From: Candidatus Wolfebacteria bacterium GW2011_GWB1_47_1 | GTDB lineage: Bacteria > Patescibacteriota > Minisyncoccia > UBA6257 > UBA9933 | Assembly (NCBI GenBank): GCA_001029635.1 | Contig: CP011209.1 | Span: 811,969 to 875,968, forward strand | DNA: 64,000 nucleotides | Direction of reading: 5' to 3' | In this document: positions 3,993 to 45,431 of the stretch, piece by piece | How positions within the stretch are numbered: the first letter of the stretch is position 1 | Layout of the letters: every line of letters starts with the position of its first letter | Program-made: the position numbers and the translations under genes | Notes under the pieces: generated by a model | Database searches by the model: none | Told to the model about the DNA's origin: nothing | The model's input: only the letters and a program-made list of their open reading frames with translations

Positions 3993-5036
3993 TTACTTTA
4001 TCGAGTCCACATACAACCTCGTCTTGCTCGTATCAACTCTGTCTATTGGCACCGTCTTTGGGAATAGTATCTTGAATATTCGCTCTTCCGCGCCCCGTAG
4101 ATTATCCAACTCCGTTTTCGATCCGCCAACTTGTATACCCATCGCATCATAGAGCAATCCTGTGATCACTACCTTCGAGGCATCGCTAATGTCATCGTTC
4201 TTTATATTCCCATTGATCGAAACCGAACCATCCGGGCTAATGATTGCCTTAGTCACCCGTTCGATATCTGCATTTACATTAGTCCTTGTCTCTGCATCAA
4301 AGATGCCACTTTCGGGCGATATATTATTCGCCTTCTGATACGCCGTCAACGCAATCTTTGTATCCAAATCGAATGTCTCGTCACTCAACTTCATGAAGAA
4401 TTGTTTTTTGTACAGGAACTCTTCCAGCTTCTGCACATCCTCTCCGGTCGCCTTCATCGCAAGGTCCTTTGTAAATACATACAGCGGTTCAGTCACTATT
4501 CTTACGCCTACAACATCCGTTGAAGACCGTTTGATATTAACCCGTGGCTCGATAAAATCTTCCCTCGCAACCACCTCCGGAGCAGAAAATGTCATTACAA
4601 GATCATCAATCTCTTCAATTCCTGCGTCAATCGTGGCAACAACATATCGCCCGATCTTTGACGACCGATCGTAGAGAAATATGTGATCACTTGACGCTTT
4701 AATCGTCATTCCATTTTTGTCCGTTGCCGTGATCGTATAGGTTACATCCTTAAACCCAAATTCCCGATTTGGGTTTTCAAGATATGCAACAACCACCGTT
4801 CGCGTATCTCCTGCTGCAAACCTTGCGATAGAATCAACCCCTATGTCCTGTGCATACTTTTGGCCGCAGGGGGCACATCCGCCGCCACAATCGATGCCTG
4901 TTTCTGTTCCATTCTGCCTCGCGTCAAAGCATGTTGGCATTGATCTAAACAGTAATACATATCCGCTAAATATAATCGCTCCCCAAAATGCCAAAAATCC
5001 CACCCCGTATGTGAATCGTTTTAGTCCTCTACTCAT
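3993..5036 (-). CDS. Hypothetical membrane-anchored protein
   Basis: 347 aa ORF with an N-terminal TM helix and a CGGGCAPCG motif. No family recognised. Confidence 0.55.
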   Translation of the reverse strand: MSRGLKRFTYGVGFLAFWGAIIFSGYVLLFRSMPTCFDARQNGTETGIDCGGGCAPCGQKYAQDIGVDSIARFAAGDTRTVVVAYLENPNREFGFKDVTYTITATDKNGMTIKASSDHIFLYDRSSKIGRYVVATIDAGIEEIDDLVMTFSAPEVVAREDFIEPRVNIKRSSTDVVGVRIVTEPLYVFTKDLAMKATGEDVQKLEEFLYKKQFFMKLSDETFDLDTKIALTAYQKANNISPESGIFDAETRTNVNADIERVTKAIISPDGSVSINGNIKNDDISDASKVVITGLLYDAMGIQVGGSKTELDNLRGAEERIFKILFPKTVPIDRVDTSKTRLYVDSIK

Positions 5037-7378: not shown

Positions 7379-7421
7379 TGCCGATAGTCGCGGACGATTA
7401 TTGGCAATGAATTCCAGGCGA

Positions 7422-7535
7422 AGCCTACTTTCCCCACCGGCGAACCAGTTAGTATCATCGGCGCTTATCACTTTTACCTCCGAGTTCGGAATGGGATCGA
7501 GTAGATCATGATAAGCTAAATCACCAGGAAATCAT
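7422..7535 (-). rRNA. rrf: 5S ribosomal RNA
   Basis: The reverse complement contains CCGAACTCGGAGGTAAAAGTGATAAGCGCCGATGATACTAACTGG...GGAAAGTAGGCTTCGCCTGGAAT, collinear with the E. coli 5S rRNA. Confidence 0.75.
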
Positions 7536-7594: not shown

Positions 7595-10688
<3,094 letters not shown>

Positions 10689-16192: not shown

Positions 16193-17512
16193 TCACTCTT
16201 CACTGAATGACATTTCTTGTGGCGGAATGAGCGTCGGATCAGTCGGTATTGTGATATGAAACACACTTCCCCGATTCAGCTGCGACTCTGCCCAGATGTC
16301 TCCCCCGTGGCGCCGCACAATGTTTTTTGTGATATACAAGCCCAACCCAGTTCCATCGGCAACGGTCTTTTGTGCGTTATCCGCGCGGAAGAACTTCGTG
16401 AATAACCGCTGCATTTCCTCTGCCGGAATCCCGATTCCCGTATCCCTTATACTCATTTCCACATATGGTTTTTCTACCTGCTGTTCGATCTCGACAGTCA
16501 CCTCTCCGTTTTCGATATTATATTTAATCGCGTTCGATACCAGATTCGACAGCACAATACCAAGCTTTTGTGGATCTATGGATACGGGAATCGGGTTTGC
16601 CGATTTTTTCAAATACAATTTAATTCCCATTTCCTGCGCATACGGCATAATCTCACTTAATACCTGTTCCGCAAACACATTAATATCCATATCCTGGAAT
16701 TTGTACCCATAGCGGCCCTCCTCAATCTGCGACACATCGAGTAGGTCATTCACTGTCTTTAATATATTGCTCGCGGCCATAACCCCCATATCAACCATCT
16801 CCTTCTGACTCTCCGGCATCGTTTCCTTTGCTAGTGACTCGAATATCCAATTAATGGAAGTCAGCGGAGTGCGCAATTGGTGCGCTGCAACTTCGATAAA
16901 TTCGCTCTTTGACTTGAGCATCGACACCTCTCTGGTTCGGTTATGAATAATTTTCACAAATCCCAGTAGTACGCCATTGGGGTCGACGATCCGGTCTGTC
17001 GTAATTCGTAACTCCGTCGTTGGGTTTGTGAACGACATATCAACCACCTGCGGGTATGCGCCCCCCTCGGAACGGCGCACGACTGATGGCGCTATCGACG
17101 GGTACAATATCTGTGTTAGTACGGTAAATTTCGCATCCTTCGCGTACTCAGGAGTCATCATCTTACCAATCACATCCGCAGCCACAACGCCCGTCACTTG
17201 CTCGGCTGCCTTGTTTATCATCACAATCCGAAAATTCTGATCGTACGCGATCAATCCATCAAGCAGATTTGCCATAATACTCCCTAGCTCATTGCGCTCT
17301 ATCTTGATCTCTCCGTTGAGCCGCGCAATGCGGACACCATTCAGCAAGATAATAGACCCCATTACGATAAAGATACCTGCACTGATTACAATCCAGATCG
17401 GCTCCAAATAAAACGAGTTAATACCCAATACTACGATTGCAAGCGGCAAAAAATACCAGAAAGGACGCATTTCCGGCATTTTTAAATATGATGTTTTCAT
17501 TCCGCTTACCAT
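16193..17512 (-). CDS. Sensor histidine kinase (two TM, PAS-like, HisKA, HATPase_c)
   Basis: H-box AAHQLRTPLTSI, N-box LSNLVSNAIKY and G-box GTGLGLYITKNIV. Its start overlaps the stop of the upstream gene (ATGA). Confidence 0.85.
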   Translation of the reverse strand: MVSGMKTSYLKMPEMRPFWYFLPLAIVVLGINSFYLEPIWIVISAGIFIVMGSIILLNGVRIARLNGEIKIERNELGSIMANLLDGLIAYDQNFRIVMINKAAEQVTGVVAADVIGKMMTPEYAKDAKFTVLTQILYPSIAPSVVRRSEGGAYPQVVDMSFTNPTTELRITTDRIVDPNGVLLGFVKIIHNRTREVSMLKSKSEFIEVAAHQLRTPLTSINWIFESLAKETMPESQKEMVDMGVMAASNILKTVNDLLDVSQIEEGRYGYKFQDMDINVFAEQVLSEIMPYAQEMGIKLYLKKSANPIPVSIDPQKLGIVLSNLVSNAIKYNIENGEVTVEIEQQVEKPYVEMSIRDTGIGIPAEEMQRLFTKFFRADNAQKTVADGTGLGLYITKNIVRRHGGDIWAESQLNRGSVFHITIPTDPTLIPPQEMSFSEE

Positions 17513-18621
17513 TATTGCAATTGCAGACTGTAGAGTTTTCTATCGTATCGGTTTATAAACAGTATCTTGTCGTCCAATACGGTCAAATCGGTCGCATCGA
17601 TCTTTGGTTCTTCGTCCTCAAATATCGCACGAATGCCATTCGTTGTCAGATCGATCTGATATATTCCATCCTGGAAATATACGCTTCGCTTCAGATATTC
17701 ATCCGGAAGAACCATATGCGTCAATGCTTCCTGATCACGGGGAATAGCACAATACATTTGCGTCGATGTCGCCATAACACACTTATCGGGCAGGGTAATA
17801 AACCGCAAGGACATTGATTCCACTCCCTTATCGTCGATAACCGCCAATTTATGCCCCCTCCCTTCAGTGGTCGTGAACTTCAATGCCCGGTCTCCTAACG
17901 GAGACCACTGTACCATGAGACCACGTCCTGATAAAAACTTTGAGAGCTTCTTCGTCCCCAAATCAATCTTCCATAGGTCAGATACATATTCGGCCGATGG
18001 GGGTTGTGTTAAATAGAGCGATTCTTTTTGTGGCCATTGCAAGTCAAATCCTTTCACGTTTAAACTTATGATCTTCTGAGGAGCTGCTTGTTCATTTTTT
18101 ATATCTTGAACCATAATCTGCGGTACGATAGTTCCTGAGTCATTCCCCGCTATTATCATTGCTATTTTCCCATCCCCCCCCCATGCAACATTATCAACGC
18201 CAATAAAATCCCTAATACGATCAATACTTATTCCGTCATATATTACACCATCCCCATCTTGACCTAATTTCGAAAAAATCCATCTACCTGAAGATGATAC
18301 CTCAATATCAACCCCTTGCAGTCCACTTTCGCTAGTTATCTCTGTTCCGTTGCTTTCTATTTCCACAACTGATCCATTTTCTGCAATATATATAATCTTT
18401 GAAGATGTAGCTACTTCCTGCACCCAATATGTCTTCACTTGTCGAGAACTCATCATTAGCAACTTCTCCACTTTAGGTTCTATCGGAGTAATCCCCCCTC
18501 CTATTATCTCCGGAATTACTTCTATTATCTGCTTCCTATTTTGCCATGCGAAATACGCACCAACACCAAGTGCAACAACCCCTAAAATAATTCCAATTGT
18601 GATAAGCCACTTTTTATTCAT
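17512..18621 (-). CDS. Hypothetical membrane-anchored secreted protein with a beta-rich (propeller-like) domain
   Basis: 369 aa with an N-terminal TM. Translationally coupled to the histidine kinase. It is the last gene of the T4SS-like cluster. Confidence 0.55.
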   Translation of the reverse strand: MNKKWLITIGIILGVVALGVGAYFAWQNRKQIIEVIPEIIGGGITPIEPKVEKLLMMSSRQVKTYWVQEVATSSKIIYIAENGSVVEIESNGTEITSESGLQGVDIEVSSSGRWIFSKLGQDGDGVIYDGISIDRIRDFIGVDNVAWGGDGKIAMIIAGNDSGTIVPQIMVQDIKNEQAAPQKIISLNVKGFDLQWPQKESLYLTQPPSAEYVSDLWKIDLGTKKLSKFLSGRGLMVQWSPLGDRALKFTTTEGRGHKLAVIDDKGVESMSLRFITLPDKCVMATSTQMYCAIPRDQEALTHMVLPDEYLKRSVYFQDGIYQIDLTTNGIRAIFEDEEPKIDATDLTVLDDKILFINRYDRKLYSLQLQ

Positions 18622-18635
18622 TGCTCTTAGCCATA

Positions 18636-19643
18636 TTATAATCGTACATGCAGGTGCCCCCCGGTCGTCGTCGTAAATGATTGCGGATTGCTCCCCACTG
18701 AATACTCATTCACCACATTTAACCCCGCCGCTCGCGCAGCATTTATAAAAGCGTTCACTCTCGCTGCGGTTATACTCCCCATCAATCCAATATCGACACA
18801 TGTTCCATTAAAATGGCAACTCGACATATGATCCACCGTTGGTGGATACCCTTCAGTCATGCGCCATTGCAACCCAGCAGCTGTTGCTTTTGTCTGTAGC
18901 ACATTCAGGGCCGCTATCAAATTTCTATTAGTCTGGCACCCTGCCCCAAAACAGGCTCCTTGCTTTACAATAAACGTCCCTCCTCCTCCGAAACTAGGCG
19001 AAGCGCAATCTACGCATGACTGAAGTTTTGCCGCCAACTCGGGCTTCGCTCCTCCGTATAAATTCACCGCGCCTTGTATTGTCTGTGCCGCTGTTATCGC
19101 TGTCGACGTCGCACCTTCATCGGTCATCGATATACCTATCTCCGTAAACTGCCTTGGCGTTATCTTTTCCTTCGGTTGCAATGCACTTTGGATGCGTGAG
19201 ATGTTGATAATATTCGGGTTGATCGTATTAAAGATTACCTGAGCCCCAAACAATAGCACAATCCCTTTGAGCGCATTTTTTATATACTCATTGCTTTGTT
19301 TTATTTTACCAATATCGGCGGAAACAGTACGCAACACTCCTCCGTAGATAATCACCCCTACTGCCACAATCCCCACCAGCCCCATGAGGTACTTGTAGAT
19401 CAAAAAAACAAGGTCTGCAGGACCCATTGCCCCCTGTACGATCGGGGGTAGATACCTTGGCGTATATAATTCACCTCCGGTCTGCCCCGGGTTTGCGGCT
19501 GCTGTCGATTGCGCATTCACCAACTCCGGAACAAACAATACGCCGACACATACTAACGCAAAACAAATAACTACTTCTATTACTGCAGCCTGTGATCGAC
19601 GTACCATATGATTCATTATATCGAAAAATGTCTTGATTGTCAT
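18636..19643 (-). CDS. T4SS-associated fusion protein. N-terminal VirB2/TrbC-like pilin-type double-TM domain, C-terminal M15-type (LAS) zinc peptidase.
   Basis: N-terminal half: two hydrophobic helices (VICFALVCVGVLFV, LMGLVGIVAVGVIIYGG). C-terminal half: SCHFNGTCVDI (SxHxxGxAxD) and GGHLHV (HxH) motifs. Confidence 0.5.
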   Translation of the reverse strand: MTIKTFFDIMNHMVRRSQAAVIEVVICFALVCVGVLFVPELVNAQSTAAANPGQTGGELYTPRYLPPIVQGAMGPADLVFLIYKYLMGLVGIVAVGVIIYGGVLRTVSADIGKIKQSNEYIKNALKGIVLLFGAQVIFNTINPNIINISRIQSALQPKEKITPRQFTEIGISMTDEGATSTAITAAQTIQGAVNLYGGAKPELAAKLQSCVDCASPSFGGGGTFIVKQGACFGAGCQTNRNLIAALNVLQTKATAAGLQWRMTEGYPPTVDHMSSCHFNGTCVDIGLMGSITAARVNAFINAARAAGLNVVNEYSVGSNPQSFTTTTGGHLHVRL

Positions 19644-19666: not shown

Positions 19667-20374
19667 TTACGGCATCTCCACAAAAACCTTGTTTCTGACG
19701 TTTTCAATCGCCTTACGCTGATTAATGATGATCGCTTCTATCGTCGATCTCGATCCAGGCGGAATGTCGCTCCCTACAGTGAATAGCAATGCTGCCTCAT
19801 CCGCCTTCTTCGTATCAAGTGCCTTCCCGTCGATAGTCCACTGGAGATTCAGTGTGCGCACATCCGTCGTATTAAAAAAGAATGGCCATGCATACATTGC
19901 GTTCTCGCCCCGCTCGATGCCCTTTTTAAAATAGGGCACATCAATGACCACTTCCGGCTTTCGTATCGGAATATCGAATGTCTTTTCATACAGCTTCCCG
20001 TTGTAGCTGGGGATCGTTATCTTTATCGATGAGACTCCTCCGCCATACTTCTTATTCACGATAATAACCCTCTTTATTCCCAATCCATTTAGCTCGTTCT
20101 TTACCAGCTTACCGTCCACATACCATCTAACCCCGGTTTGAGACAAATCCGCTATCTTCCCATCTTCGATAAGTTCAAAAGTGATTGTTATCGCGCTTTC
20201 ATGCGTCGGGAATGCGCGACCTTCATACCACGCAGGTACATACGTACGCGTCTGCCAGTTTGTCATGAACTCGGTTTCCGCATGCGCATGCGCAACTCCA
20301 CCCAATAGCACCACCATAGCTCCAACGACACCATACCAATATTTTTTTATATTCCGACGGGTTTTTTTCATCAT
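19667..20374 (-). CDS. Hypothetical secreted protein
   Basis: 235 aa with a signal peptide (MVVLLGGVAHAHA). Confidence 0.5.
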   Translation of the reverse strand: MMKKTRRNIKKYWYGVVGAMVVLLGGVAHAHAETEFMTNWQTRTYVPAWYEGRAFPTHESAITITFELIEDGKIADLSQTGVRWYVDGKLVKNELNGLGIKRVIIVNKKYGGGVSSIKITIPSYNGKLYEKTFDIPIRKPEVVIDVPYFKKGIERGENAMYAWPFFFNTTDVRTLNLQWTIDGKALDTKKADEAALLFTVGSDIPPGSRSTIEAIIINQRKAIENVRNKVFVEMP

Positions 20375-20397: not shown

Positions 20398-21012
20398 TTA
20401 TTCTCCCATTGCTATTTTACGACGTAGCTCTGCTGCTCGAATCTCATTCGACTCTCTTCTTTCGGCCATACGATCACCCACTCCACTTACCCTGCGCTGC
20501 GTAGGCATCTCCATACGCTGTCCAACCGCCGATGCATTTACCGTTACCACTTCCCTTCTTGCCGTTTCTGCGGTCGTTGCCGCTGTCTGAGCGCTTGCCG
20601 CAACGGTCGCGTTTCGCGCCGTAGCAGTTACAGCCCCTTTTCCTCTAGTTGCAATGATCTGCCCTGCAGGTCCCACGATCTTCTCGATCTTTTCTGAATT
20701 GTTGATCATCCAAATTCCGATCATTGTTGATATGGTCTTAATGGGCAATATCGTCCCCAGTATGCCATCTAAAACCCCCCCCAATGGTTGCACAATCAAT
20801 CGCTTGATCCCGACACCTCCGCGGAATATCATGTACATTTCCAATAGCGCAACCATTCCAATATTCATTATCTCAACCACCCCTATACCAGCTCCGAGCG
20901 TAACCAACAAAATAGCGACCTCAACAAGTTCTTCGATTCCTACAAGGAGTACGAGGAATATTGTTTCTGCCAGCCCGACTGTTTTTGTCTTTATTTCTTC
21001 GTCCATAGTCAT
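20398..21012 (-). CDS. Hypothetical multi-TM membrane protein, in the position of VirB3 or another T4SS inner-membrane component
   Basis: 204 aa with three hydrophobic helices. Directly downstream of VirB4. Confidence 0.45.
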   Translation of the reverse strand: MTMDEEIKTKTVGLAETIFLVLLVGIEELVEVAILLVTLGAGIGVVEIMNIGMVALLEMYMIFRGGVGIKRLIVQPLGGVLDGILGTILPIKTISTMIGIWMINNSEKIEKIVGPAGQIIATRGKGAVTATARNATVAASAQTAATTAETARREVVTVNASAVGQRMEMPTQRRVSGVGDRMAERRESNEIRAAELRRKIAMGE

Positions 21013-21027: not shown

Positions 21028-22800
21028 TTACAATTTTCCTTCTTCCGCTATTTCCAATAGTTGCTCCGGATTTGTCGTTATGATCCGGTCCTCGAAATAG
21101 GACGGGATGATCTTGATCGCCACGTGCTTCATCCCCACAAGGAAAATCCCCTCTCCCACTCCCGCCGACAACACAAGACTCTTTTCCGCTTCACTGAGCG
21201 AAAAAGTCTTTGCAAGTGTTTCAATGCTCGATGGAGCCTGCTTCAATAGCAGCTGCAGCGACGAGTTCGATACAATCGGTACACCAAACGGCGAGTTCAT
21301 AAAGTCATCCACGTTCTGCGTAATCGTGGTCATTCCCAAGTAATATTTACGACATCGTTTTGCGAGTGCAAACAAGAACGACGCACTGTCTGCGTGCTTC
21401 ATCAAGACCCAAGCCTCATCGATGATCAGGATGCGCTTTTTCATCTCTGCGCGGATCAAATTCCAAATATAGCTCAGCATCATGTACATTGCGATTGGCC
21501 GTAACTCCTCTTCAAGATCGCGTGTCGAAAAGATCACCAACCGATTGTTGACATCCACATTCGTTGCCCGATTGGCAAACCCCGCATAAGTACCTTGGGT
21601 AAATTTGTACAGCTTCGCCGCCATACTCTTCCCTCCTTCCATGTTTTCCAAGACTGTCTGCAAATCGCTCAGTAATGGCGCTTCCAATGTCGAGAAATCC
21701 TTAATGTCACTCGTGATACCGCGCGATGCGTATGTTTCATTGATTGCTCGATCCAGCAGCGCATCTTCTTCCGGTGTGATCGCCCCCATCATCAGCTTGA
21801 GTAGGCCAACGATGTTCAAAATATGCGACTTGTACACATCGGCAGGGTCTTCTCCTTGCGGTACGACAGGGATATCCAACGGATTGATTGCCGTATCGGA
21901 TGTCAGCGATATCTTCAACAAGCTTCCTCCAACCGCATCGGCCAACTTTTGGTACTCGTTTTCCGGATCGATGACGATGACGTCAATGCCCATCATTAAC
22001 GAACGCAAAATTTCCAATTTTGTACCATACGATTTACCGGCACCGGATTTTGCGAATACCACCTGGTTCGCGTTTTCCAATGAGAATCGGTCAAAAATAA
22101 TCAACGAATTGTTATGCTGATTAATACCGTACAATACACCCTTATCTGACGTGAGGTCTTCCGATACGAATGGAAAAAATGACGAGATCGGACTCGTATT
22201 CAATGCAGTGTGGATCTGCAATTTGTCCTGCGCAATTGGTAATGTCGAAATAAATCCTTCAATATGTTGAAAGATCGACGGCTTCACATACACCATCTGA
22301 CTATCCAGCATTGACGTGATACGATCTTCCGCCCGCGCAAGCTCATCGACAGAATTCGCGTAGATCGTTATATATACCCCCACATCAAATAACTTCTCTT
22401 CCGCCTGCTGCAATTGATCGCGCAGGGCTTCGATATCCTGATATGCCGTTTCCAATGCCGGGTCTCGGACCAATCCTTTTTCATCACGCTCCGAAAGCTG
22501 CGCCTCTACCTGAGTCACTTTTCTTCGCAACTTCGATAGCGCCGCCGATGTATCGATCGGATGCACAAAAATGGAAATGTCTAGAAGATTTGGCAAATTA
22601 ATGATCACGTCAAACCACCCGGTCGACAGATATCGCGGATAGGTGAACACGAAAATCGTCTTTGCGTACGTATCTCCGAGTCTTATGTAATTAGGATTTG
22701 CTTCAAGCGCAGCAGGAGCGATGACATTCTTTACGTCGTCCCCCTCCTCATATGCCTGCGGTACGGTTATTTTTTCCATTTTTGTAGTTAGTGTTGTCAT
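21028..22800 (-). CDS. virB4: VirB4/TrbE/CagE-family type IV secretion ATPase, catalytic portion
   Basis: Walker A FAKSGAGKSYGT and Walker B LIIDEAW. 590-614 aa depending on start. Listed ORF reaches 22872 via GTG; the more plausible start is ATG 22798-22800 (MTTLTTK). A REP-like insertion lies at 22791-22875. Confidence 0.8.
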   Translation of the reverse strand: MTTLTTKMEKITVPQAYEEGDDVKNVIAPAALEANPNYIRLGDTYAKTIFVFTYPRYLSTGWFDVIINLPNLLDISIFVHPIDTSAALSKLRRKVTQVEAQLSERDEKGLVRDPALETAYQDIEALRDQLQQAEEKLFDVGVYITIYANSVDELARAEDRITSMLDSQMVYVKPSIFQHIEGFISTLPIAQDKLQIHTALNTSPISSFFPFVSEDLTSDKGVLYGINQHNNSLIIFDRFSLENANQVVFAKSGAGKSYGTKLEILRSLMMGIDVIVIDPENEYQKLADAVGGSLLKISLTSDTAINPLDIPVVPQGEDPADVYKSHILNIVGLLKLMMGAITPEEDALLDRAINETYASRGITSDIKDFSTLEAPLLSDLQTVLENMEGGKSMAAKLYKFTQGTYAGFANRATNVDVNNRLVIFSTRDLEEELRPIAMYMMLSYIWNLIRAEMKKRILIIDEAWVLMKHADSASFLFALAKRCRKYYLGMTTITQNVDDFMNSPFGVPIVSNSSLQLLLKQAPSSIETLAKTFSLSEAEKSLVLSAGVGEGIFLVGMKHVAIKIIPSYFEDRIITTNPEQLLEIAEEGKL

Positions 22801-22830
22801 TCCGTGCTTGACACGGAATCTTATTATTAG
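22791..22830. repeat. REP-like element, family R, at the VirB4 split site
   Basis: gtcattccgtgcttgacacggaatc hairpin, then caggatgacac at 22860-22870. Confidence 0.5.
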
Positions 22831-22875
22831 CCTTCCGATACGAGATTCTGAAACAAGTTCAGGATGACACACTTA

Positions 22876-23526
22876 TTATTTCTGTTTCGCGATTCCTATT
22901 CCCTTCTTCTCGGTTGCCGCAGGATTATATAAATTATAAAATAGTTCGATCAGCTCGGCATCATTTAATGTGACTGCGCGCAATCCGATTCCTGAAAGTC
23001 CCGTCGCAACGTGGTCGGCGCGCTGATTCAACTGTTCTATCTGTTCATTTAATGTCTTTTCGTCCTCCGTTTTCGTATCCTTTTTCTTTCCAAAAAATGG
23101 AATGCCGCTCATTATTCCTCCCGATGTCGGTAATCCAGCAGTGTCGTACGAAACCACAACAAAGAACGACTTGCCCATGATGTCGCTTTGTTCGACGAAT
23201 GACTTGATGAATTCGCCATATTCGGCGATCTGCTCTCGAAGCAATTCATTTTCCTCGTGTTCCTTGCGTTGTTCCAGCCCCTCCAAGTAGCCCTGAATAT
23301 TGAGTCTTCTCGAATGGACAATAATCTGCAGCGAAAAATCGAGTGAGTTTAAAAAGCTCTGGTATGCCTGTAAAATAATATTTTTATCCTCTTCGGATTT
23401 TAACGCAAAATTGATCCCACTTACCAGTAAGATCTTGCGCAATGAACCTCCCTTAAGAATCACCGTTCCCCTCTGTACCCGTTCTACATCTACAAATTGT
23501 TGCGTTGCCTGTGCTTCTACTGCCAT
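22876..23526 (-). CDS. VirB4 N-terminal-domain-like protein. It is in the same frame as virB4 and separated from it only by tandem TAA TAA.
   Basis: 216 aa, soluble. It ends AKQK with stop codon 22876-22878; the next codon 22873-22875 is also TAA; GTG at 22870-22872 is the listed virB4 ORF start. Confidence 0.5.
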   Translation of the reverse strand: MAVEAQATQQFVDVERVQRGTVILKGGSLRKILLVSGINFALKSEEDKNIILQAYQSFLNSLDFSLQIIVHSRRLNIQGYLEGLEQRKEHEENELLREQIAEYGEFIKSFVEQSDIMGKSFFVVVSYDTAGLPTSGGIMSGIPFFGKKKDTKTEDEKTLNEQIEQLNQRADHVATGLSGIGLRAVTLNDAELIELFYNLYNPAATEKKGIGIAKQK

Positions 23527-23624: not shown

Positions 23625-24175
23625 CTACCTAAAATCCACCCGTTTCGCCACCTCCTGCTCACCTGTCTGCCTTCTAAATATGCTCAGCTTTTCCGCAACT
23701 GCCGCAGGGATTGCCTTCTCGCGTTGCGGGATTGGATTCTTTCTTGTCGTAAGATCCGATGACAGCTTATTAATCGATGGCATTTGGGCAGTAAATTGCT
23801 TCAGCGTGTTTCTTTGGTCGATAATCTTTTCTTCAGGAACCGGTGCTGTTGTCGGTTTAATGTTTGCAAATTCCGGCACTTCAATCACGCGCTCCTTTAT
23901 TTCCCGCTTCCATAGATATAACCTTGGCTTCCAGAAGAATCCTACAGCCGCAAATGCAATGCGTGTCAGGGGCTGTCCGTTAACCTTTACCAGCGCCAAT
24001 GCAAGCGCCCCTCCGAGCGATATAAGCGCAACTATCGCACCTGCCAAAAAAGGCATCGTTGTAAACGCTAAAAATGCCACTACTCCTCCTCCAACCACGT
24101 ACAGCAACTGTCGTAACGAAAAAGGACCGGCGATTTTGTCTTCTATTTCAATAAATTGAGGTATTTGGAATTGCA
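23625..24175 (-). CDS. T4SS-associated small membrane protein (two TM)
   Basis: Start taken as MQFQIPQFIEIEDKIAGPFSLRQLLYVVGG. The longer listed ORF 23625-24350 begins inside REP copies. Confidence 0.45.
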
Positions 24176-24227
24176 TGGGTAGCTCGATAGCAAATAGCTT
24201 ATTAGCTCGTTGGTGGCATGTGGATAT

Positions 24228-24300
24228 TTTGTCATTCCGGCGGAGGCCGGAATTTATTTTGATCTGGACCCCGGCCTCCGCCGGGGTGACAATTTGGTCC
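24228..24300. repeat. REP-like elements, family R, tandem inverted pair
   Basis: tgtcattccggcggaggccggaat ... ccccggcctccgccggggtgacaa. Confidence 0.6.
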
Positions 24301-24306
24301 GATTTA

Positions 24307-25464
24307 TTACTTCTTATCCTGTACCCGCTCCAGCATCCGCAGGTCGACAATGTCGTCGTTTACCGGAATCTGCGCAAGTTGTGGTTCCTTCGCTGCGGGC
24401 GCTTGCTGAGCAACTACACCAACCCGTTGCGGCGTCTTCATTATCGTAGCTTCAGGAATCTTTGGCATCGATGCCATCGGCTTGCCCTCCTCCGGCATTG
24501 CCGGTACGGGAATGGCAACGGATGAGATCACTTCATTCTGCGCGCCAAGATCAACAACCCTTGGCTCAAAGTCTACCACATGCTCCTGCTTTGTCGTAGG
24601 GACGAATATCGGCTCTATACCCTTTTGTTGTGCCTGCTCTTGCTGGCCAAACATATCCTGAGGAGCCTTTGCACTCGTATAATGGACCACTTTCACCTCC
24701 TGTTGCGGTGTTTTTGCCACCTCCTCCGACTTCTTCCCCAACCCCTCAATCATACTTATCTGAGCCGTTACGGCAGGGCCTGCGGATTTTTGCTCCTGAT
24801 TACGCTTAAATCCAAATACTCCTCCAAATGAACTCAGCGGTCTTCTCTTTTGTGTCACCGGCACAAGATCAGCTTCGGCATGTATAATTGTCGGGGCCGG
24901 CATACCGACTCCATCTTCCGCTGCCCCCGTTGGGACACTTACATTCCTACCCATATCCCCTTCGATTCGCACCTTTCTTATTTCCACAGATGCTTCCTGC
25001 TCTTCCGTTACTATCGCAGGATTTATACGATCAGTCGCGATCATTGCAGGGGTTTGCGCAGTCGCCTCCCCGCTCGTTTGCGCTGCATTCTGCTCTCGTG
25101 CGGGCCCCTCCTCCGCCATAATAGCCGGACTTTCTCCTGATACATCCGCGCGTAACTTCAAAATTAACCCTTTAACCGGATCGAATATCCGTTTATCAAT
25201 TTGAAAAATGATCGGGTCGATCGCCTTTTGATCCATCCCCGGGATGGATTGCAATTCCTTTGCTAAGTCGTTGATATGAGTAAATCCAAGCAGTATGTTA
25301 CCCATAACTATCAATACCACATCAATAATTTCTTCCGACAATCCAGCGTCCTCGCATGCCTTCCATATAATTTCCCCATTATCCACAGAGAAAAAGGCCT
25401 CCTTAAGCTCGTCAGGCACCTGTCCCCATCGGTCATAGATTTGTTCGTTGGTCACTGTTTGCAT
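24307..25464 (-). CDS. Hypothetical protein with a low-complexity C-terminal half
   Basis: 385 aa. Lies between the VirB6-like gene and the small membrane protein. Confidence 0.45.
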   Translation of the reverse strand: MQTVTNEQIYDRWGQVPDELKEAFFSVDNGEIIWKACEDAGLSEEIIDVVLIVMGNILLGFTHINDLAKELQSIPGMDQKAIDPIIFQIDKRIFDPVKGLILKLRADVSGESPAIMAEEGPAREQNAAQTSGEATAQTPAMIATDRINPAIVTEEQEASVEIRKVRIEGDMGRNVSVPTGAAEDGVGMPAPTIIHAEADLVPVTQKRRPLSSFGGVFGFKRNQEQKSAGPAVTAQISMIEGLGKKSEEVAKTPQQEVKVVHYTSAKAPQDMFGQQEQAQQKGIEPIFVPTTKQEHVVDFEPRVVDLGAQNEVISSVAIPVPAMPEEGKPMASMPKIPEATIMKTPQRVGVVAQQAPAAKEPQLAQIPVNDDIVDLRMLERVQDKK

Positions 25465-25479: not shown

Positions 25480-27771
25480 TTATGCTTTTTTCTCTTCTTC
25501 CTTACTTGCCGTATACAAACGACTTGCCCCCGACTTTCTCATTGAATCCTGCATGCGCACTATATGTTGATAATCCTCAGACTCCTTCTTCATCGATGAG
25601 AAGTCCGCACTGTCCCGTGCATGCAACATCTTCATCTGCGCTTCGATATCATTTAGTACGCGTTCTCCTCCGAGATTCTTATATGCCTTTGCATCATGTT
25701 CTTCGATCCATGTCAGCATTTCCTTAATATCTTTTGTTTTCGCTATATCCTCATTTGTTGCCTTAAGCTCTTTCATAACCGAAACCAATTCTTTATTGGT
25801 TGCTCCGGCGATCTCAGCACCCTTCGTCGCCTTGATTCCGTCGATCACTCCCTGCTTTATTTCGGCACCAATCCCTTCTATCTTACCCATGAATTTTTTC
25901 ACCTCCGGACCCTTACCAATACCTTTCGTAAGAGAAGCGAGGGCACGTGGATCGTTCATCATTAATGACTGTAGCGCTTCCTTACCGTATTTGCCTTTAT
26001 CATAGAAATCAAATCCCAGAGCAACGCGATCCTTTTCGGCAAATGAATCAAAGAACTTCTTCGCCTCCTCCTGATACTTCTTCTTTGCACTTACAATAGC
26101 ATCTGTCTTGGCCACGCCTGGTGGCAATGCATTTGCTGCGTCAACGCCCTTTTGTGCGGTCAGCATCTCGGCATTCCTTCCTGCTGCCTTAGTTAGCTTT
26201 GCATATGCTCCTGCGCCACCAATGCCATCGAACTGCCCCTTAATGCCAGTCGCACCCGTGCTCATAATATCCGCATCAAGGATCTTTTCGTTGATCTTCC
26301 CTAGGTTGCCACCCTTAGCGAGCTGCTGTTGCGCAAAGAACTTCTCGTCGGTAGCCATGGTCGCATAGCGGCCGGCCAAGCTGTCGTCGGACATTCCCTT
26401 GAACTTCTCGTCGAATGCCTTCTTAAGCGCTGCCTGCTGCGATTGCGATATCGCCTGCCCTGCGCGTCCCAAAGCACCAGCAGTCCTCCCTTTGGCCCAA
26501 CCCATAACACCCGGCTTACGCTCCGCCTCCATCTTGCGTAGATCGGCCGCACTTACGCCATACTTCTTGGCAACATAGCCTGCCCCAGCAATGCCTGCTG
26601 CCGCGCCCCGCGCACCCATGCGGCGCGCTCCGCGTTCAGTCTCTCTGCGCACATATGCCTGCGTGCCCTTGCCCATCTTTTCGAGCCTCGCCTTACTCCA
26701 GCCAGACATATTACTGATCATGTCCTTGCTTCCTTTTGCTCCCTTCAAGCTGATGCTATTTGCCGCGATCAACGACATCATCATGAACATGATCGCCATG
26801 GCGGCCTGCACAACGGAACTCATCGTAAACAGAAGGCCATCTCCAAACGCATACGTTGCGTTGCCACCGCTACCGGCAGCTGTCGGAGCGGGATTATCGA
26901 ATGCATTTAGCGATGTTAGTGACAGCCACATGAAAAATATCATGACCGGTGGGAACATCGTCCATCGCACAAAGTCATTCCACCATTTGTCCCAATGACT
27001 ACGCGTTGACGGAAATATCCTGGAAACGAATACGATCGGTGTAAGCACCAGCAAAAATGTCAACGTAAAATACCGGATGAATAACATCGCCGCGATCGTC
27101 ATCATAATGACCGATGCGATAAGCGTGAAGATGATAATGAACACCATACTTCCGATAATGCTCAATATCCCTGATCCGAATTTGTCCATTGCTCCCGCAA
27201 TGCTTGTAGCTCCGCTTTTTGTACTCAAAAATCCTGAAATATCAAACCCACTCGCGAGCGCAGACGTTATATTCCCTCCCGACAATCCAGACTGCTGTAC
27301 AAAAAACTCGGTCACCATTCCTGAAAAATCAATCAGCACTCCAGGAATCACCAAACTGAAGTTCACAAGAAGTGAAATGACGATCAGAGGCACTAATGCC
27401 TTCTTCATGCCGTATGACTCAAAATTCAGCATCGTCGCAAATGCGATGACGATCAACGCTATTACGAGCGCCAGATCTGCTACGTTTACGAATACCGTCC
27501 ACCCCTTAAAGAGAAATACGTTCTTTGCCGGATCCAATATTGTATTATTCAGATTCATGCCCAGTTCGATGAACGAACCTCCAAGCATAAAGAACTTCTG
27601 GGCAACCCAAGTAAAAATTACTAAAATAGCCTGACTCGCCTTGGTGATTACGGACGTCCCTAAAGAATCAATATATCCCGCCACCTGTGCGTATGTAAAC
27701 TGCGTAAGCGCGATTTCAAAAATCGCGCTTACAAGTCCGATTAAAAGAATTTTTTTATAGATCGATTTCAT
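25480..27771 (-). CDS. VirB6/TrbL-like polytopic membrane protein with a long hydrophilic C-terminal tail
   Basis: 763 aa. At least 6 TM helices in the N-terminal 350 aa, then a charged Ala/Lys/Gly-rich tail, typical of TrbL/VirB6-type components. Confidence 0.6.
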   Translation of the reverse strand: MKSIYKKILLIGLVSAIFEIALTQFTYAQVAGYIDSLGTSVITKASQAILVIFTWVAQKFFMLGGSFIELGMNLNNTILDPAKNVFLFKGWTVFVNVADLALVIALIVIAFATMLNFESYGMKKALVPLIVISLLVNFSLVIPGVLIDFSGMVTEFFVQQSGLSGGNITSALASGFDISGFLSTKSGATSIAGAMDKFGSGILSIIGSMVFIIIFTLIASVIMMTIAAMLFIRYFTLTFLLVLTPIVFVSRIFPSTRSHWDKWWNDFVRWTMFPPVMIFFMWLSLTSLNAFDNPAPTAAGSGGNATYAFGDGLLFTMSSVVQAAMAIMFMMMSLIAANSISLKGAKGSKDMISNMSGWSKARLEKMGKGTQAYVRRETERGARRMGARGAAAGIAGAGYVAKKYGVSAADLRKMEAERKPGVMGWAKGRTAGALGRAGQAISQSQQAALKKAFDEKFKGMSDDSLAGRYATMATDEKFFAQQQLAKGGNLGKINEKILDADIMSTGATGIKGQFDGIGGAGAYAKLTKAAGRNAEMLTAQKGVDAANALPPGVAKTDAIVSAKKKYQEEAKKFFDSFAEKDRVALGFDFYDKGKYGKEALQSLMMNDPRALASLTKGIGKGPEVKKFMGKIEGIGAEIKQGVIDGIKATKGAEIAGATNKELVSVMKELKATNEDIAKTKDIKEMLTWIEEHDAKAYKNLGGERVLNDIEAQMKMLHARDSADFSSMKKESEDYQHIVRMQDSMRKSGASRLYTASKEEEKKA

Positions 27772-27816: not shown

Positions 27817-29334
27817 CTATGGAGTTGCAGGCGTCCCAGCTCCCTGCACAGTCCTGCATGTTTGCAGTCGTGTTAAAACAAGATCCAGCTCTCCTTTCCA
27901 TGCAACAGACTGATCCTTCGCATCTTGCAGTTGTTGTGGGTATGCTGTGGTTGGATCAGTAATCAAGGCGCCGCGCGCGTACTTGTCCATGAAGTCCTTC
28001 ACGGCATTTGTTGCCAGAATAGCCTCTCTCGTATTAAGCATATTCGCCCCTTCAACCCTGCTAATAGCCCCCTGCGCCTCATCGAGTTTCGCCTGCAGGT
28101 CCGCCAGTTCCGTTGTAAGTAATCCGCCGCGCGCCGTCACTTCTGCAATCTCATTTTCCGTAACTTGTGGCGGACATAGCACACCCGCCTCCTGGATCCC
28201 TTTGATCGCGCTGAGGTTTGCCGTTATTTGCTCGCTATAAGTTACCGATAAGCGCTTTTGCGCAACCAATGCACTCCACTGATCTTTAAACGGCTTTACT
28301 TGATCCGTCAGATCCTTCTTGTCGTCATTCGTAAGTGCGTCGATCTCCGGAGCGAGTTGCGTTGATGGATTAAACCCATTCTGAGGGTTCTCATTTCCCG
28401 TCATCAGTGCTAGTCCTTCGCTCATCATGCGATTGATTCCCGCATTGATCGCAGCCGAAATAATGCTCTGTACTCCCGATACATAGATATTGTCAGATCC
28501 GATCATATTTTTCACCGCCCCCGCGACAGCGTCTCCTGGTGTCTGGACCTGTTCCTTCGTACATGTCGCTGCCTCCGTGGCATAGTCGTAACAATAGTTT
28601 GGATCGCCCGTATCAAAATAATTATTTGCGACACAGTAATCGTACATTTCCTGCGAGTTGTCCTCGATACACTTACTCACCGACAAGAATCCACTACCTG
28701 CACCCGCTTCCTGCTTCTTTTTCTCTGCGCTCACGGTCGATCGCGTCTTCATGTCGTCATCAAACATAACCAACTGCATGTAGAGATTGTTCTCCGGCTT
28801 TATCGAGGCGCCATACGCAAGCCATCCTCCATTTTCAAAATTTTCATAAAAATCCTCCACATTCGCCACGATATCCGAAATGGTACAGCTTGCCTGTTGG
28901 CTTACCGGCTGCTCTTCCGGGATCATTGCGATCTTCAGCTGTAATGCGAATGGCGTACACAGGTTCGCGAGCTGCGTCTGGCTTATCGTTTGGTTGACTC
29001 CTTCCATTGCGGCATCCTTCAGGAGCCCTCCCCAATCGCTAACAAATTTCGGCTTTCCGTTCCCTTGGATCCACGCAACCGTCTGCTTGTTGATCTCGTT
29101 AACGATTGCCTTTACAACCTGATCGCGCAACGTATTCCATAATTCGGTCTTCGCCCACTGCGCAACTTGCGTCACCCAATTCATACTGTTCGCAGCCGAG
29201 CCAATCGCCGTCAATGCGTTAAGCGGTCCATCAATGACTGGAATCGCGTATGACTTCTGTGGCGTCGCTAATCCAACCATAAGCACAGCAACGCACATCA
29301 TCGAAACGATAATTTTTTTCACTGTAGTATGCAT
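27817..29334 (-). CDS. Secreted T4SS-associated protein, possibly a VirB5/TrbJ-like minor pilin or adhesin
   Basis: 505 aa with a signal peptide (MCVAVLMVGLATPQKSYA) and coiled-coil-prone segments. Confidence 0.45.
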   Translation of the reverse strand: MHTTVKKIIVSMMCVAVLMVGLATPQKSYAIPVIDGPLNALTAIGSAANSMNWVTQVAQWAKTELWNTLRDQVVKAIVNEINKQTVAWIQGNGKPKFVSDWGGLLKDAAMEGVNQTISQTQLANLCTPFALQLKIAMIPEEQPVSQQASCTISDIVANVEDFYENFENGGWLAYGASIKPENNLYMQLVMFDDDMKTRSTVSAEKKKQEAGAGSGFLSVSKCIEDNSQEMYDYCVANNYFDTGDPNYCYDYATEAATCTKEQVQTPGDAVAGAVKNMIGSDNIYVSGVQSIISAAINAGINRMMSEGLALMTGNENPQNGFNPSTQLAPEIDALTNDDKKDLTDQVKPFKDQWSALVAQKRLSVTYSEQITANLSAIKGIQEAGVLCPPQVTENEIAEVTARGGLLTTELADLQAKLDEAQGAISRVEGANMLNTREAILATNAVKDFMDKYARGALITDPTTAYPQQLQDAKDQSVAWKGELDLVLTRLQTCRTVQGAGTPATP

Positions 29335-44063: not shown

Positions 44064-44135
44064 TGCCCCTGTGTGGAATCGAACCACAATTTTAACTTCC
44101 GCAAAGTCATGTCCTATCCATTGAACGACAAGGGC
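44064..44135 (-). tRNA. tRNA-Arg (anticodon GCG as read; the D-arm is identical to the other Arg tRNAs)
   Basis: GCCCTTGTCGTTCAATGGATAGGACATGACTTTGCGGAAGTTAAAATTGTGGTTCGATTCCACACAGGGGCA, with anticodon loop TTGCGGA. Confidence 0.65.
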
Positions 44136-44232
44136 AAAATGACAAATAACAGGTAACCAATAACTTATAACGGGATACCCATTAGCGTCATTCAGTTATA
44201 GCAAATCCTATTTCATTTTACAATAATCCCCC

Positions 44233-44824
44233 CTAGAATCCGACCCAGCGCTCCAGTAGCTCCATAAATGTCACTTCAATCTCGCCTCGCTCTACCCGCC
44301 CTTCCAAGAGATCCTCGATAGCATCCACGTCTTCGGCGGGTACGAATATCTTTATGTAGTGAGTCATCTTTGACCTTGTCTTTAATAGCAACTCGTAATA
44401 TTCATCTGAGAATTCATGGATGTCATACAATACGACATCCTTATATCGGTAGGTTTTATGCTTTTCGATCGTAATACCCTTATCGTCAATGGCAAACCTC
44501 CACATCTTTGGCTTTTCTCCCGCAAACATAAATATGGCAAGCTCCGCCACCACTATAAACACAGCGAATAGAAAGTTCTTTTGCCACAGCGCTATCGCGA
44601 TAAGAACAATGGCGATCGCCATACTGCTCCAATACCATGTAGTGCTTTTTTCGATATGCTCAAACTCCGGAGCTTCCCAGGTAATCCCGTTCTGTATCGG
44701 CATTTCAAGTTCCTCCTCTTCATCGGTCACCTCATCCGAAACTTCCTGATCTTCGTCTCCATATTCTTCCCGATTCATATCTTCGTCGGTTTTTGTAAGA
44801 AAAACATCGTTTTCTTGTTCCATG
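44233..44824 (-). CDS. Hypothetical membrane protein with an acidic N-terminus
   Basis: Start taken as MEQENDVF. Two TM helices in the middle. Confidence 0.45.
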
Positions 44825-44901
44825 GTTTTATTATACCTTAAAAATCTAAGAAACGGTATATTACTTTTATTAACACACCAACAGAAGCATATCACTCCTT
44901 C

Positions 44902-45111
44902 TTAGGGATGCTTTGTCTGTGTTGCAACAATGCGCCACGCTGTAATTATCAAGAATACAACAATAAGATATATGGTGAAATTTTCGACTATGCCCACCCC
45001 ATTTGCATACGTCCCCTGCTGAATATCTGGGTAGTAGATTCCATCATTCACTTGGATTGCATGCATTGAAAATCCGTAATCAATAGATAGAATGTACCGG
45101 AGCGCAATCAC
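44902..45111 (-). CDS. Small hypothetical membrane protein
   Basis: 69 aa ORF. Confidence 0.25.
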   Translation of the reverse strand: MIALRYILSIDYGFSMHAIQVNDGIYYPDIQQGTYANGVGIVENFTIYLIVVFLIITAWRIVATQTKHP

Positions 45112-45362
45112 TACCTGGGACTATATTATTTGCGAGGCATTCGGTGGCATCTGTTTTTCCTGGAAACACAACACTATTAGGATACGTTTGCGCCGGGCTT
45201 TTAATATACGTCTATACAATTGTAAGTAATCCACTAGCTACTACAATGATGCCAATCTTATAGTATTTCATTTATTTTAATAATAGCACATCACTATACA
45301 GCCCTTTGTAATCCGCCAGCCGACTGTTATACGAGCTTAAGATGCTCTTTTGTTATTTTAAA

Positions 45363-45396: not shown

Positions 45397-45431
45397 TATA
45401 AACTCTCTACTTATCATTATTCCATCCACTG

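Follow-up and report, generated by a model that had tools for sequence, protein, structure and literature searches.

Most genomes of the Candidate Phyla Radiation (CPR, Patescibacteria) that encode VirB2-like pilins lack a homologue of VirB1 (PMC12102498), and the wall hydrolases that type IV secretion system (T4SS) clusters encode are needed to bring the machine through the peptidoglycan (PMC12102498). How the wall could be opened for such a system is the question raised by one gene of Candidatus Wolfebacteria bacterium GW2011_GWB1_47_1, a member of the CPR. The gene lies in a stretch of 64,000 nucleotides (contig CP011209.1, positions 811,969 to 875,968 of the forward strand), which was analyzed as a whole and is called the window in the following. 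The open reading frame (ORF; 18636..19643, minus strand) has an ATG start and a stop codon at 18636-18638 in the ORF listing. It encodes a protein of 335 amino acids (aa), in which a long leader, a VirB2-like two-helix pilin module, a disordered linker, and a C-terminal domain follow one another. The product is 100% identical to "hypothetical protein UY31_C0042G0004" of Candidatus Wolfebacteria bacterium GW2011_GWE1_48_7 at NCBI. The results described below make it rather probable that this protein serves the Wolfebacteria T4SS as its dedicated peptidoglycan peptidase, and that it stands in for VirB1.

The C-Terminal Domain Is Predicted to Have the LAS Fold

The C-terminal domain comprises residues 196-335 (18639..19058, minus strand; 140 aa). 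When a model of the full-length protein was used for Foldseek searches, the result was diluted by the helical N-terminus, and enzymes of the LAS (lysostaphin/DD-carboxypeptidase/Sonic hedgehog) group were retrieved first with E values of 0.09-0.26. Therefore, the domain was modelled alone with AlphaFold2 (AF2), which yielded a local confidence score (pLDDT) of 90.2 and a global score (pTM) of 0.86. A comparison of this model with the PDB retrieved 25 Hedgehog N-domains first (probability 1.00, TM-scores of 0.5-0.63, E values of about 1e-3), followed by ChiX, an L-Ala-D-Glu endopeptidase, the endolysins Ply500 and LysB4, LdcB/VanY, MepA, and VanXY. The top 45 structural matches all had the LAS fold, and their probabilities were 0.9-1.0 except for the 45th (VanXYg, 0.44). 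The identities in the structural alignments were low, i.e., 13-22% overall and 16-22% to the Hedgehog domains. In the viral structure library BFVD the matches were phage M15A and M15B peptidases and endolysins.

Profile searches were performed in addition. A profile of 17 C-terminal domains matched exclusively Sonic hedgehog (Shh) N-domains in the PDB, with a best E value of 6.6e-4, and a more diverse profile of 33 sequences matched exclusively Hedgehog proteins (21 distinct sequences, best E value 2.7e-3). The nearest solved relatives are Hedgehog N-domains, and not VanY or DD-carboxypeptidases. A match to the ribosomal protein uL18 (E value 0.07), which appeared when the whole protein was used for a single-sequence search of the PDB, was rejected as spurious. 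Taken together, the model and the profile matches support the prediction that the domain has the LAS fold.

An earlier reading of the window, which had been made from the sequence only, had proposed an M15 (LAS-type) peptidase. The fold was indeed recovered by structure prediction (pLDDT 90.2, Foldseek) and by the profile search with the C-terminal half (Shh), whereas a membership in the curated M15 families was not found. None of the Pfam M15 models (VanY, Peptidase_M15, M15_2/3/4) and also not HH_signal matched the query (E<=10) or 41 homologues (E<=1), and residues 196-335 were not covered by any Pfam, NCBIfam, or PHROG model in the query and the homologues. The label "M15" is thus to be refined to a Hedgehog/DD-peptidase-type LAS domain without a curated family. 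The SLT model (PF01464) did not match the query, and a lysozyme-like fold of the VirB1 type was not encountered. Together with the LAS fold this means that the protein can be only a functional analogue of VirB1.

The Predicted Active Site Is Nearly Invariant

Both zinc-type motifs that had been noticed in the sequence were verified by translation, i.e., SCHFNGTCVDI at residues 275-285 and GGHLHV at residues 328-333. The former overlaps with the motif H272-x4-H277-x6-D284 (18792..18830, minus strand; translation HMSSCHFNGTCVD), which includes a predicted catalytic histidine (H272), two predicted zinc ligands (H277 and D284), and the pair Cys276/Cys282, a probable disulfide. The latter contains H330-L-H332 (18648..18656, minus strand; translation HLH), of which H332 is the predicted third zinc ligand. 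The predicted catalytic glutamate is E313 (18705..18707, minus strand; codon checked), the equivalent of Shh E177, with vvnEy of the query aligned to VYYES of Shh. In the profile alignments H272, H277, D284, and E313 fall on Shh residues H135, H141, D148, and E177. In Shh, H141 and D148 are zinc ligands, H135 is an auxiliary histidine, and E177 is the catalytic glutamate (PMC6027127). At the proposed ligand positions H277, D284, and H332 the AF2 model of the whole protein had pLDDT values of 96-98.

The conservation of these residues was determined with 172 LAS-bearing proteins, comprised of 150 listed representatives of 50%-identity clusters and the first-round homologues, which were aligned to a hidden Markov model (HMM) of the domain. 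H277 and D284 were kept in all 172 proteins, H272 in 171, E313 in 170, and H332 in 135 of the 136 sequences that were aligned at this column. This near-invariance shows that the motifs are not a chance match. H330, the first histidine of the HxH motif, was kept in 88 of 138 sequences and was otherwise N or S. Cys276 and Cys282, which flank H-x6-D, were both present in 164 of the 172 relatives and both missing from 8, and a single cysteine was never observed. Such a joint retention or loss is the pattern expected of a disulfide in an exported domain. Drosophila Hedgehog, which is likely to be devoid of peptidase activity, has lost exactly these catalytic and ligand residues (PMC6027127). The conservation of the catalytic and ligand residues to 99-100% across 172 diverse relatives argues for a working enzyme.

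The N-Terminal Half Resembles VirB2 Pilins

The N-terminal half has the layout of VirB2/TrbC propilins, i.e., a long leader followed by two hydrophobic helices that are joined by a short basic loop. The leader (residues 1-44; 19512..19643, minus strand) is comprised of a basic N-terminal tail, a hydrophobic core at residues 20-38 with a Kyte-Doolittle peak of 2.96, and, next to it, the putative signal-peptidase site VNA/QS, at which the leader may be cleaved off. A second hydrophobic core was found at residues 86-104. In the AF2 model of the whole protein, which included 41 homologues and had a mean pLDDT of 79, an N-terminal helix at residues 3-36 was followed by a low-confidence spacer. The pilin module (residues 62-141; 19221..19460, minus strand; translation verified) contains an RYLP motif, one helix at residues 75-107, the basic loop RTVSADIGKIKQSNEYIK with four K/R residues, and another helix at residues 111-140. 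The pLDDT of the two helices was 83-94. The hairpin thus agreed with the two hydrophobic helices in a VirB2/TrbC-like arrangement that had been seen in the sequence-only reading, and the count had to be corrected to three hydrophobic or helical segments, because the leader core at residues 20-38 is added.

The assignment as a pilin, which had also been part of that reading, was supported by several searches. Every one of the 41 homologues was recognized by the Pfam model T4SS_pilin (PF18895) when a limit of E<=1 was set, the lowest E value being 6.7e-11, and the scores of related fusions were 27-41 bits, mostly above the cut-off. In the query, residues 82-141 were matched with 20.6 bits versus a cut-off of 26.6 (E value 4.8e-4). 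The TrbC/VirB2 model (PF04956, TrbC) was also weakly matched in 6 of the 41 homologues, and the NCBIfam model "Mbov_0395 family pilin-like conjugal transfer protein" weakly matched the query. When a profile of the pilin module was compared with the PDB, both helices aligned to VirB2 of A. tumefaciens (8exh, 8cue), which was the best specific match, albeit a weak one (E values of 0.19-0.22). In its size the protein is unlike a single-domain pilin, which has about 70-100 aa in its mature form, because it has 335 aa including a globular C-terminal domain of 140 aa.

The two modules are connected by a flexible linker of about 55 aa (residues 142-195; 19059..19220, minus strand), in which a conserved NPN motif is followed by a region of low complexity. 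Residues 163-181 had a pLDDT below 50 in the AF2 model, and the median length of the linker was 42 aa in 160 family members. A cleaved leader together with a cytoplasmic basic loop would put the C-terminus outside the membrane.

The Linkage of Pilin Module and LAS Domain Is Common in the CPR

An exhaustive search with the domain-profile HMM over 1.84 billion cluster representatives (50% identity) yielded 1,036 proteins with a limit of E<=1e-3, of which 611 remained when it was tightened to E<=1e-10. With an HMM of the pilin module it was revealed that 160 of the 172 LAS-bearing proteins also contain this module, and that the order is pilin module before LAS domain in 160 of 160 cases, i.e., the linkage is an obligate one in the fusion family. 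Most of the remaining 12 proteins have fewer than 200 aa; some of them look like fragments at contig ends, and others are stand-alone forms with a single transmembrane (TM) segment. The LAS domain usually ends the protein, and the family lengths cluster at 200-400 aa. A few members of 650-1,020 aa carry a large extra N-terminal ectodomain, and one of them is annotated as "pilin [Candidatus Taylorbacteria]". In P0120 (1,021 aa) the pilin module is found at residues 758-835 and the LAS domain at residues 907-1020.

To survey the distribution, the motif CHx[NDA]GTC[VA]DI was scanned in one genome per GTDB species, and 32 loci were found. They belong to metagenome-assembled genomes (MAGs) that are labelled as CPR (Moran-, Yanofsky-, Jorgensen-, and Doudnabacteria, Paceibacterota, Saccharibacteria, and others) or have coarse automatic labels. 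Four of these MAGs are labelled Bdellovibrionales or Gammaproteobacteria. A labelling artefact is suspected, because two of them (loci L013 and L026) carry the same neighbouring gene, o369, next to the fusion gene as the window (see below). Apart from these suspect labels, all occurrences of the domain that were seen are in CPR bacteria, and in nearly every case it stands on the C-terminal side of a pilin module. The fusion had been called unusual in the sequence-only reading. This is true for T4SS in general, but not within the CPR, where it is common with about 1,000 clusters at 50% identity.

On long contigs, a small set of LAS proteins was found that stand alone (P0059, P0200-P0203); they have 173-191 aa and a single TM anchor, and they lack a pilin module. 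One such gene is located at 9722-10255 of locus L004, and the arrangement is alike in L005-L007; some of these genes directly follow a pilin-LAS gene. Where they are named, the stand-alone proteins are annotated as hypothetical proteins.

The Fusion Gene Is Part of a T4SS-Like Cluster

The proposed location inside a T4SS-like cluster was confirmed by the presence of genes for a TrbL/VirB6-like protein, PrgI, a TraC-like protein, and a VirB4 P-loop ATPase. The gene order was compared with those of related genome loci (L001, L002, etc.). On the minus strand, the cluster of the window starts at its upstream end with o505 (27817..29334), which was not assigned to a family and the homologues of which occupy the corresponding place in L001, L002, and L015. 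It is followed by the gene for a VirB6/TrbL-like polytopic membrane protein (25480..27771), which weakly matched Pfam TrbL (1.6e-3) and has an L001 orthologue with TrbL_3. The next genes are o385 (24307..25464), a conserved cluster gene without an assigned family that has a homologue at the same position in L002 (2e-104), and the gene for a PrgI/VirB3-like protein (23625..24350; Pfam PrgI, 6.5e-9). The TraC-like N-terminal part of VirB4 is encoded by a separate gene (22876..23526; Pfam TraC_F_IV, 4.8e-5; PF26593 TraC-like in relatives), and the P-loop part of the VirB4-type ATPase by the following one (21028..22872; Pfam P-loop_TraG, 8.5e-24, AAA_10, and DUF87). The window shares this split of VirB4 into two genes, for a TraC-like protein of 216 aa and a P-loop protein of 614 aa, with all related CPR loci that were examined.

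Directly downstream of VirB4 lies o204 (20398..21012), which encodes a small polytopic membrane protein. Its relatives have only 130-142 aa, and therefore its true start may be internal. The gene o235 (19667..20374), between VirB4 and the pilin fusion, encodes a conserved exported protein. Both genes were recognized by synteny and had no family match. The pilin-LAS gene is followed by o369 (17512..18621), the product of which has a single N-terminal TM helix and no match in Pfam or the PDB. The order ends with genes for a histidine kinase and for a transpeptidase of the type of penicillin-binding protein 2 (PBP2), which is located 3 kb downstream of the fusion gene.

The order from VirB6 to o369 recurs in nine other CPR loci, i.e., L001 and eight GTDB loci of different CPR lineages. 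About two thirds of the related loci have no virB4 within 10 kb of the pilin-LAS gene, which is there accompanied by o369 alone or located in arrays of two to three pilin paralogues. At least 12 CPR loci have o369 immediately behind the fusion gene, among them loci without virB4 nearby and the locus with a swapped C-terminus that is described below. The gene o369 thus has the appearance of a conserved companion of the fusion.

Apart from the fusion, no pilin-like ORF was detected in the window with the family HMM, even with filters switched off. Another wall-hydrolase domain was not found among the scanned cluster genes and other large ORFs, and a coupling protein or a relaxase was not found among the scanned cluster genes and the large ORFs of the window. 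In CPR T4SS clusters the pilins have been detected with PF18895, are often arrayed, and usually occur without a relaxase (PMC12102498). A protein of 347 aa with a PG_binding_1 match (3993-5036, minus strand; 1.3e-6) is encoded about 13 kb from the T4SS cluster and is possibly wall-active. In a distant relative (L001, 12119-16462), the genes yidC, rnpA, dnaA, and dnaN border on the T4SS cluster that includes the pilin-LAS gene. A location of CPR T4SS next to the replication origin region had been reported earlier (PMC12102498), and the location in L001 agrees with this.

Different C-Terminal Domains Are Carried by the Pilin Module

In other CPR genomes, the pilin paralogues in arrays beside pilin-LAS genes were found to carry other C-terminal domains behind T4SS_pilin. 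One of them has an SLT domain (L035, 8101-9225; PF01464, 8.5e-14), another one the lysozyme-like domain SLT_3 (L033, 207-1070; PF18896, 2e-6), and a third one, of 1,484 aa, a subtilase domain (L023, 689-5140; Peptidase_S8, 2.5e-52). A further paralogue weakly matched SLT_3 (L029, 7978-8928), and cysteine-rich modules were also found on sister pilins in arrays. Because SLT, SLT_3, subtilase, and cysteine-rich domains are borne by array pilins, the pilin module serves CPR bacteria as a general N-terminal carrier of extracellular hydrolases. The Pfam accession numbers of T4SS_pilin (PF18895) and SLT_3 (PF18896) follow directly upon each other.

A second group of close homologues (P0017-P0035) has kept the pilin module and has a different C-terminus. 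One of them, P0028, is encoded at exactly the orthologous position (L002, 10001-11002; L003, 3010-4011). Between the window and the genome of L002/L003 the identity is 92% for VirB4 and 81% for the histidine kinase, 58% for the pilin module, 56% for o235, and 50% for o369, and between the C-terminal domains BLASTP detected no similarity when E<=10 was allowed. The replacement domain has about 140-180 aa and the motif TSVTEG.H..G..SHANGYKWDM ... HWD, in which the S-H-x6-D spacing is kept. It was considered that it might be a diverged LAS domain; this was not supported, as hhalign against the LAS profile twice gave a probability of 0.3%. Profile searches of the PDB, Pfam, and PHROGs with the replacement domain yielded nothing, and a homologue search returned two proteins. 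These sequence comparisons indicate that envelope-exposed cluster proteins evolve fast and that the C-terminal module has been exchanged, because the high identity of VirB4 is met by much lower values for the pilin module, o235, and o369 and by an unrelated C-terminus.

Further Features of the Window

The window has a uniform base composition and contains genes for 23S and 5S rRNA, many tRNAs, LeuRS, RecG, UvrD, and KsgA. A phage origin of the fusion gene was ruled out, because there were no PHROG matches and the window, with 23S/5S rRNA, LeuRS, RecG, and UvrD, is core chromosome. The 23S rRNA gene is found at 7685-10666 and the 5S rRNA gene at 7413-7528 (minus strand), and there is no 16S rRNA gene within the window. 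A tRNA cluster at 44064-46788 lies in the part with the lowest GC content (0.41-0.42). Among its genes are one for tRNA-Ser(TGA) and two for tRNA-Ala (GGC and TGC), the latter being 88% identical to one another.

This tRNA cluster lies just upstream of a diversity-generating retroelement (46926-49400, minus strand), the reverse transcriptase of which is encoded at 46926-47918 (RVT_1, 1.8e-21). A pair of repeats of 132 nucleotides (48313-48444 and 48813-48944) is 82% identical, and 22 of the 24 mismatches are on T of the first copy on the plus strand, i.e., on A of the coding strand. Due to this bias the first copy (48313-48444) is the template repeat. The variable repeat is the second copy (48813-48944), which is located at the 3′-end of an ORF without a Pfam match (48816-49400).

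Comparison With Known Systems

A similar gene is SEML1_0007 of Southlakia epibionticum ML1, which is also a CPR gene of a T4SS cluster and adjoins virB4 (SEML1_0008) on its downstream side. Its product has a C-terminal ECOD "Hedgehog/DD-peptidase" domain (residues 951-1105) and was found by transposon sequencing (Tn-seq) to be essential for epibiotic growth (supplements of PMC10633639). It differs from the fusion protein in that it has 1,113 aa, is given only in a supplementary table, and has no reported pilin module (PMC10633639). Long pilin-LAS members, e.g., P0120, have a layout similar to SEML1_0007, which was not recovered in the homologue search with the LAS profile; this search mainly returned the short stand-alone forms. 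The next gene, SEML1_0006, encodes a protein with two lysozyme-like domains and a cysteine proteinase domain (supplements of PMC10633639). The Southlakia pilins SEML1_0014-0019 are encoded by separate short genes, unlike the pilin-LAS fusion (PMC10633639). For its epibiotic growth, Southlakia requires both the T4SS genes and the pilins (PMC10633639; review PMC12857230). A T4SS-linked Hedgehog-type peptidase in the CPR is thus already on record, in a table only. New are the direct fusion to a VirB2-like subunit, the size of the family and its restriction to the CPR, the conserved active site with the cysteine pair, and the indications that the module is exchangeable. A pilin-enzyme fusion in CPR T4SS was not found in full-text literature searches. 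The VirB2-like pilins of the CPR (PF18895) share the N-terminal module, the clusters with VirB4, PrgI-VirB3, and VirB6, and the arrays with the proteins studied here, but they have been described as small and C-terminal enzyme domains have not been mentioned (PMC12102498).

Exported or membrane-anchored wall hydrolases of T4SS clusters include VirB1 (SLT), PrgK of pCF10 (LytM-SLT-CHAP), TcpG, TrsG, and CD419 (PMC12102498). They differ from the fusion protein by their folds and by their lytic transglycosylase, CHAP, or M23 chemistry, and none of them is fused to a VirB2 subunit. In PrgK a metallopeptidase-type domain (LytM) is present.

The M15 peptidases LdcB/VanY, VanXY, ChiX, Ply500, LysB4, and MepA (M74) share the LAS fold and the pattern of metal ligands with the CPR domain. 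Those with solved structures all cut peptide bonds in stems or cross-links of peptidoglycan. Their structural matches were weaker than those of Hedgehog (TM-scores of 0.40-0.56), and a Pfam M15 sequence match was lacking. A filament subunit with a functional C-terminal module is also known from modular type IV pilins, e.g., PilB/PilC of Streptococcus sanguinis, in which such a module is attached to a pilin domain. This likeness is one of analogy, as the pilin fold and the machinery (type IV pili) are unrelated and the modules are adhesive, not enzymatic.

Hedgehog N-domains and bacterial Hedgehog-like domains (bacHh) have H-x6-D, the catalytic glutamate, and H-x-H in common with the CPR domain, and they comprise its closest solved structures and its only sequence matches in the PDB. 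The bacterial Hedgehog-like domain is likewise C-terminal in larger exported proteins (PMC6027127). It is more than 50% identical to the N-domain of Shh (ShhN) over about 145 aa (PMC6027127), whereas the CPR domain has 16-22% identity to Hedgehog and thus falls short of the roughly 50% to ShhN by which bacHh is recognized. The Cys276/Cys282 pair and a PPT motif are found in the CPR family and are absent from Hedgehog. Two bacHh proteins annotated as hypothetical are encoded on plasmids, one on p2 of Pararhizobium gei (WP_275791455.1; L036, 7179-8417) and one on a plasmid of Bacillus tropicus (WP_270185596.1; L037, 5139-8456). In their C-terminal domains the identity to human ShhN is about 52%, and the HMM of the CPR LAS domain recognized them with 17-31 bits. 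Neither of the two has a pilin or TM module, and there are no T4SS genes within 8 kb of them. It was also considered that the "three-TM" bacterial Hedgehogs (Roelink 2018) might be pilin fusions; the two plasmid-borne bacHh gave no support for this, and the Rhizobium examples were not found.

Proposed Mechanism and Alternative Explanations

The window contains genes for a Mur ligase and two class-B PBPs, and therefore the organism builds peptidoglycan. The following mechanism is proposed. The precursor would be exported by the Sec system and its leader would be removed. The hairpin would then reside in the membrane with the basic loop in the cytoplasm, as the positive-inside bias and the precedent of VirB2 suggest. 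The LAS domain would be placed outside on its tether of about 55 residues, with the Cys276-Cys282 disulfide stapling the metal-binding loop. By fold and conservation, a zinc ion is expected to be held by H277, D284, and H332, while E313 and H272 would activate a water molecule, and a peptide bond of the peptidoglycan, either in the stem or in a cross-link, would be hydrolysed. Homology and synteny suggest that the pilin module docks the enzyme to the T4SS, or along a filament if one is formed. The wall would thus be opened where the machine or the filament passes, and the separate VirB1-type lytic transglycosylase of canonical systems would be replaced. Several observations weigh against this proposal. 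Curated M15 or Hedgehog models do not match the domain, the first histidine of HxH is swapped for N or S in about one third of the relatives, and the T4SS_pilin score of the query itself is below the Pfam cut-off. The alignment of the pilin module to the solved VirB2 likewise did not reach significance. In addition, about two thirds of the related loci have no virB4 within 10 kb, and the link to the T4SS is drawn partly by pilin homology.

Several alternative explanations were considered. The peptidase might be shown on a filament or at the contact site and digest the wall of a host bacterium, as a swappable "warhead" of an armed pilus or as a host-directed effector. Such a role is rather unlikely, although it would be in accord with the retention of the pilin module and the replacement of the C-terminal domain by an unrelated sequence at the orthologous locus of L002/L003, with the much faster evolution of the envelope genes o235 and o369 compared to VirB4, and with the differing hydrolases (SLT, SLT_3, subtilase) of the array pilin paralogues. 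In the solved pili of VirB2 and TraA both termini are on the outer surface, and by analogy the C-terminal domain could be displayed. The requirement of the T4SS and the pilins for epibiotic growth of Southlakia (PMC10633639) points in the same direction. However, filaments of CPR VirB2-like proteins are treated only as a "potential" in reviews (PMC12857230), the fusion gene is not followed by a variable immunity-like gene, as o369 is conserved whatever the C-terminal type, and a 15-kDa domain on each subunit may be sterically hard to pack. It would be still more surprising if the protein were a polyprotein, the linker of which is cut after Sec export, whether through a pilin-maturation protease or through the protein's own LAS domain, so that a short mature pilin and a free secreted peptidase are formed at a ratio of 1:1 where assembly takes place. 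The long, disordered, and poorly conserved linker would be compatible with such a cut, and the stand-alone LAS genes (173-191 aa, single TM) show that the domain can work without the pilin module. Trimming at the C-terminus is an established step for propilins of the VirB2 family: TrbC of RP4 is processed at its C-terminus, and TrbC and VirB2 are then cyclised. Yet a conserved cleavage motif was not seen in the linker, a TraF-like maturation peptidase was not found among the scanned cluster genes, and the retention of the fusion in about 93% of the family suggests that the tethering itself has been selected.

It is very improbable that the protein is a housekeeping DD- or LD-carboxypeptidase of the LdcB/VanY type, with the hairpin as a generic anchor and an incidental T4SS neighbourhood. 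LdcB and VanXY were among the structural matches, the gene for the PBP2-type transpeptidase lies 3 kb downstream, and many family members are not beside virB4. But the position after VirB4 is kept across distant CPR classes, whereas the PBP neighbourhood is not (yidC/rnpA/dnaA in L001), and in every homologue the pilin module is recognized by curated pilin models. Furthermore, the domain is confined to the CPR and is hardly ever met on its own, without the pilin module, and Hedgehog-type domains, not LdcB, are closest to it in sequence and structure. Hardly any weight is given to a non-catalytic binding module, i.e., an adhesin or a ligand for wall peptides or for a host surface molecule. The closest solved structures are those of signalling proteins with a debated peptidase activity (PMC6027127), and the variability of the first histidine of HxH would fit with a loss of catalysis. 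However, E313, H272, and all three metal ligands are conserved to 99-100% in about 170 divergent sequences, while Drosophila Hedgehog, likely peptidase-dead, lost exactly the equivalent residues (PMC6027127). Therefore, a T4SS-dedicated peptidoglycan peptidase in the place of VirB1 is the preferred interpretation of the pilin-LAS protein.

Implications for the Biology of the CPR

The pilin-LAS protein offers a possible answer to the question how CPR pili can do without VirB1 (PMC12102498), i.e., by a hydrolase that is built into a pilin-like subunit in many CPR lineages. The family is large (about 1,000 clusters), is now labelled only "hypothetical protein" or "pilin", and has a clear active site that can be mutated. 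As a bacterial relative of the Hedgehog signalling domain the family is deep-branching, and its catalytic residues are all intact. Southlakia is the only genetically tractable CPR bacterium, and the T4SS and VirB2-like pilins are essential there. A fast-evolving, domain-swapping surface component may determine the host range. It is tempting to speculate, although it is unlikely, that the VirB2 pilin of the CPR has been turned into a modular carrier, an armed pilus that drills the host wall with swappable warheads, each of them borne by a filament subunit or by a pilin-like protein docked to the machine. The C-terminal modules that were seen comprise the Hedgehog-type peptidase, SLT, lysozyme-like, subtilase, and unassigned domains, and their exchange by recombination may track the wall chemistry of the hosts. 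If this were true, T4SS pili would include a new functional class, the armed pilus, and epibiotic feeding would have a mechanistic basis in it.

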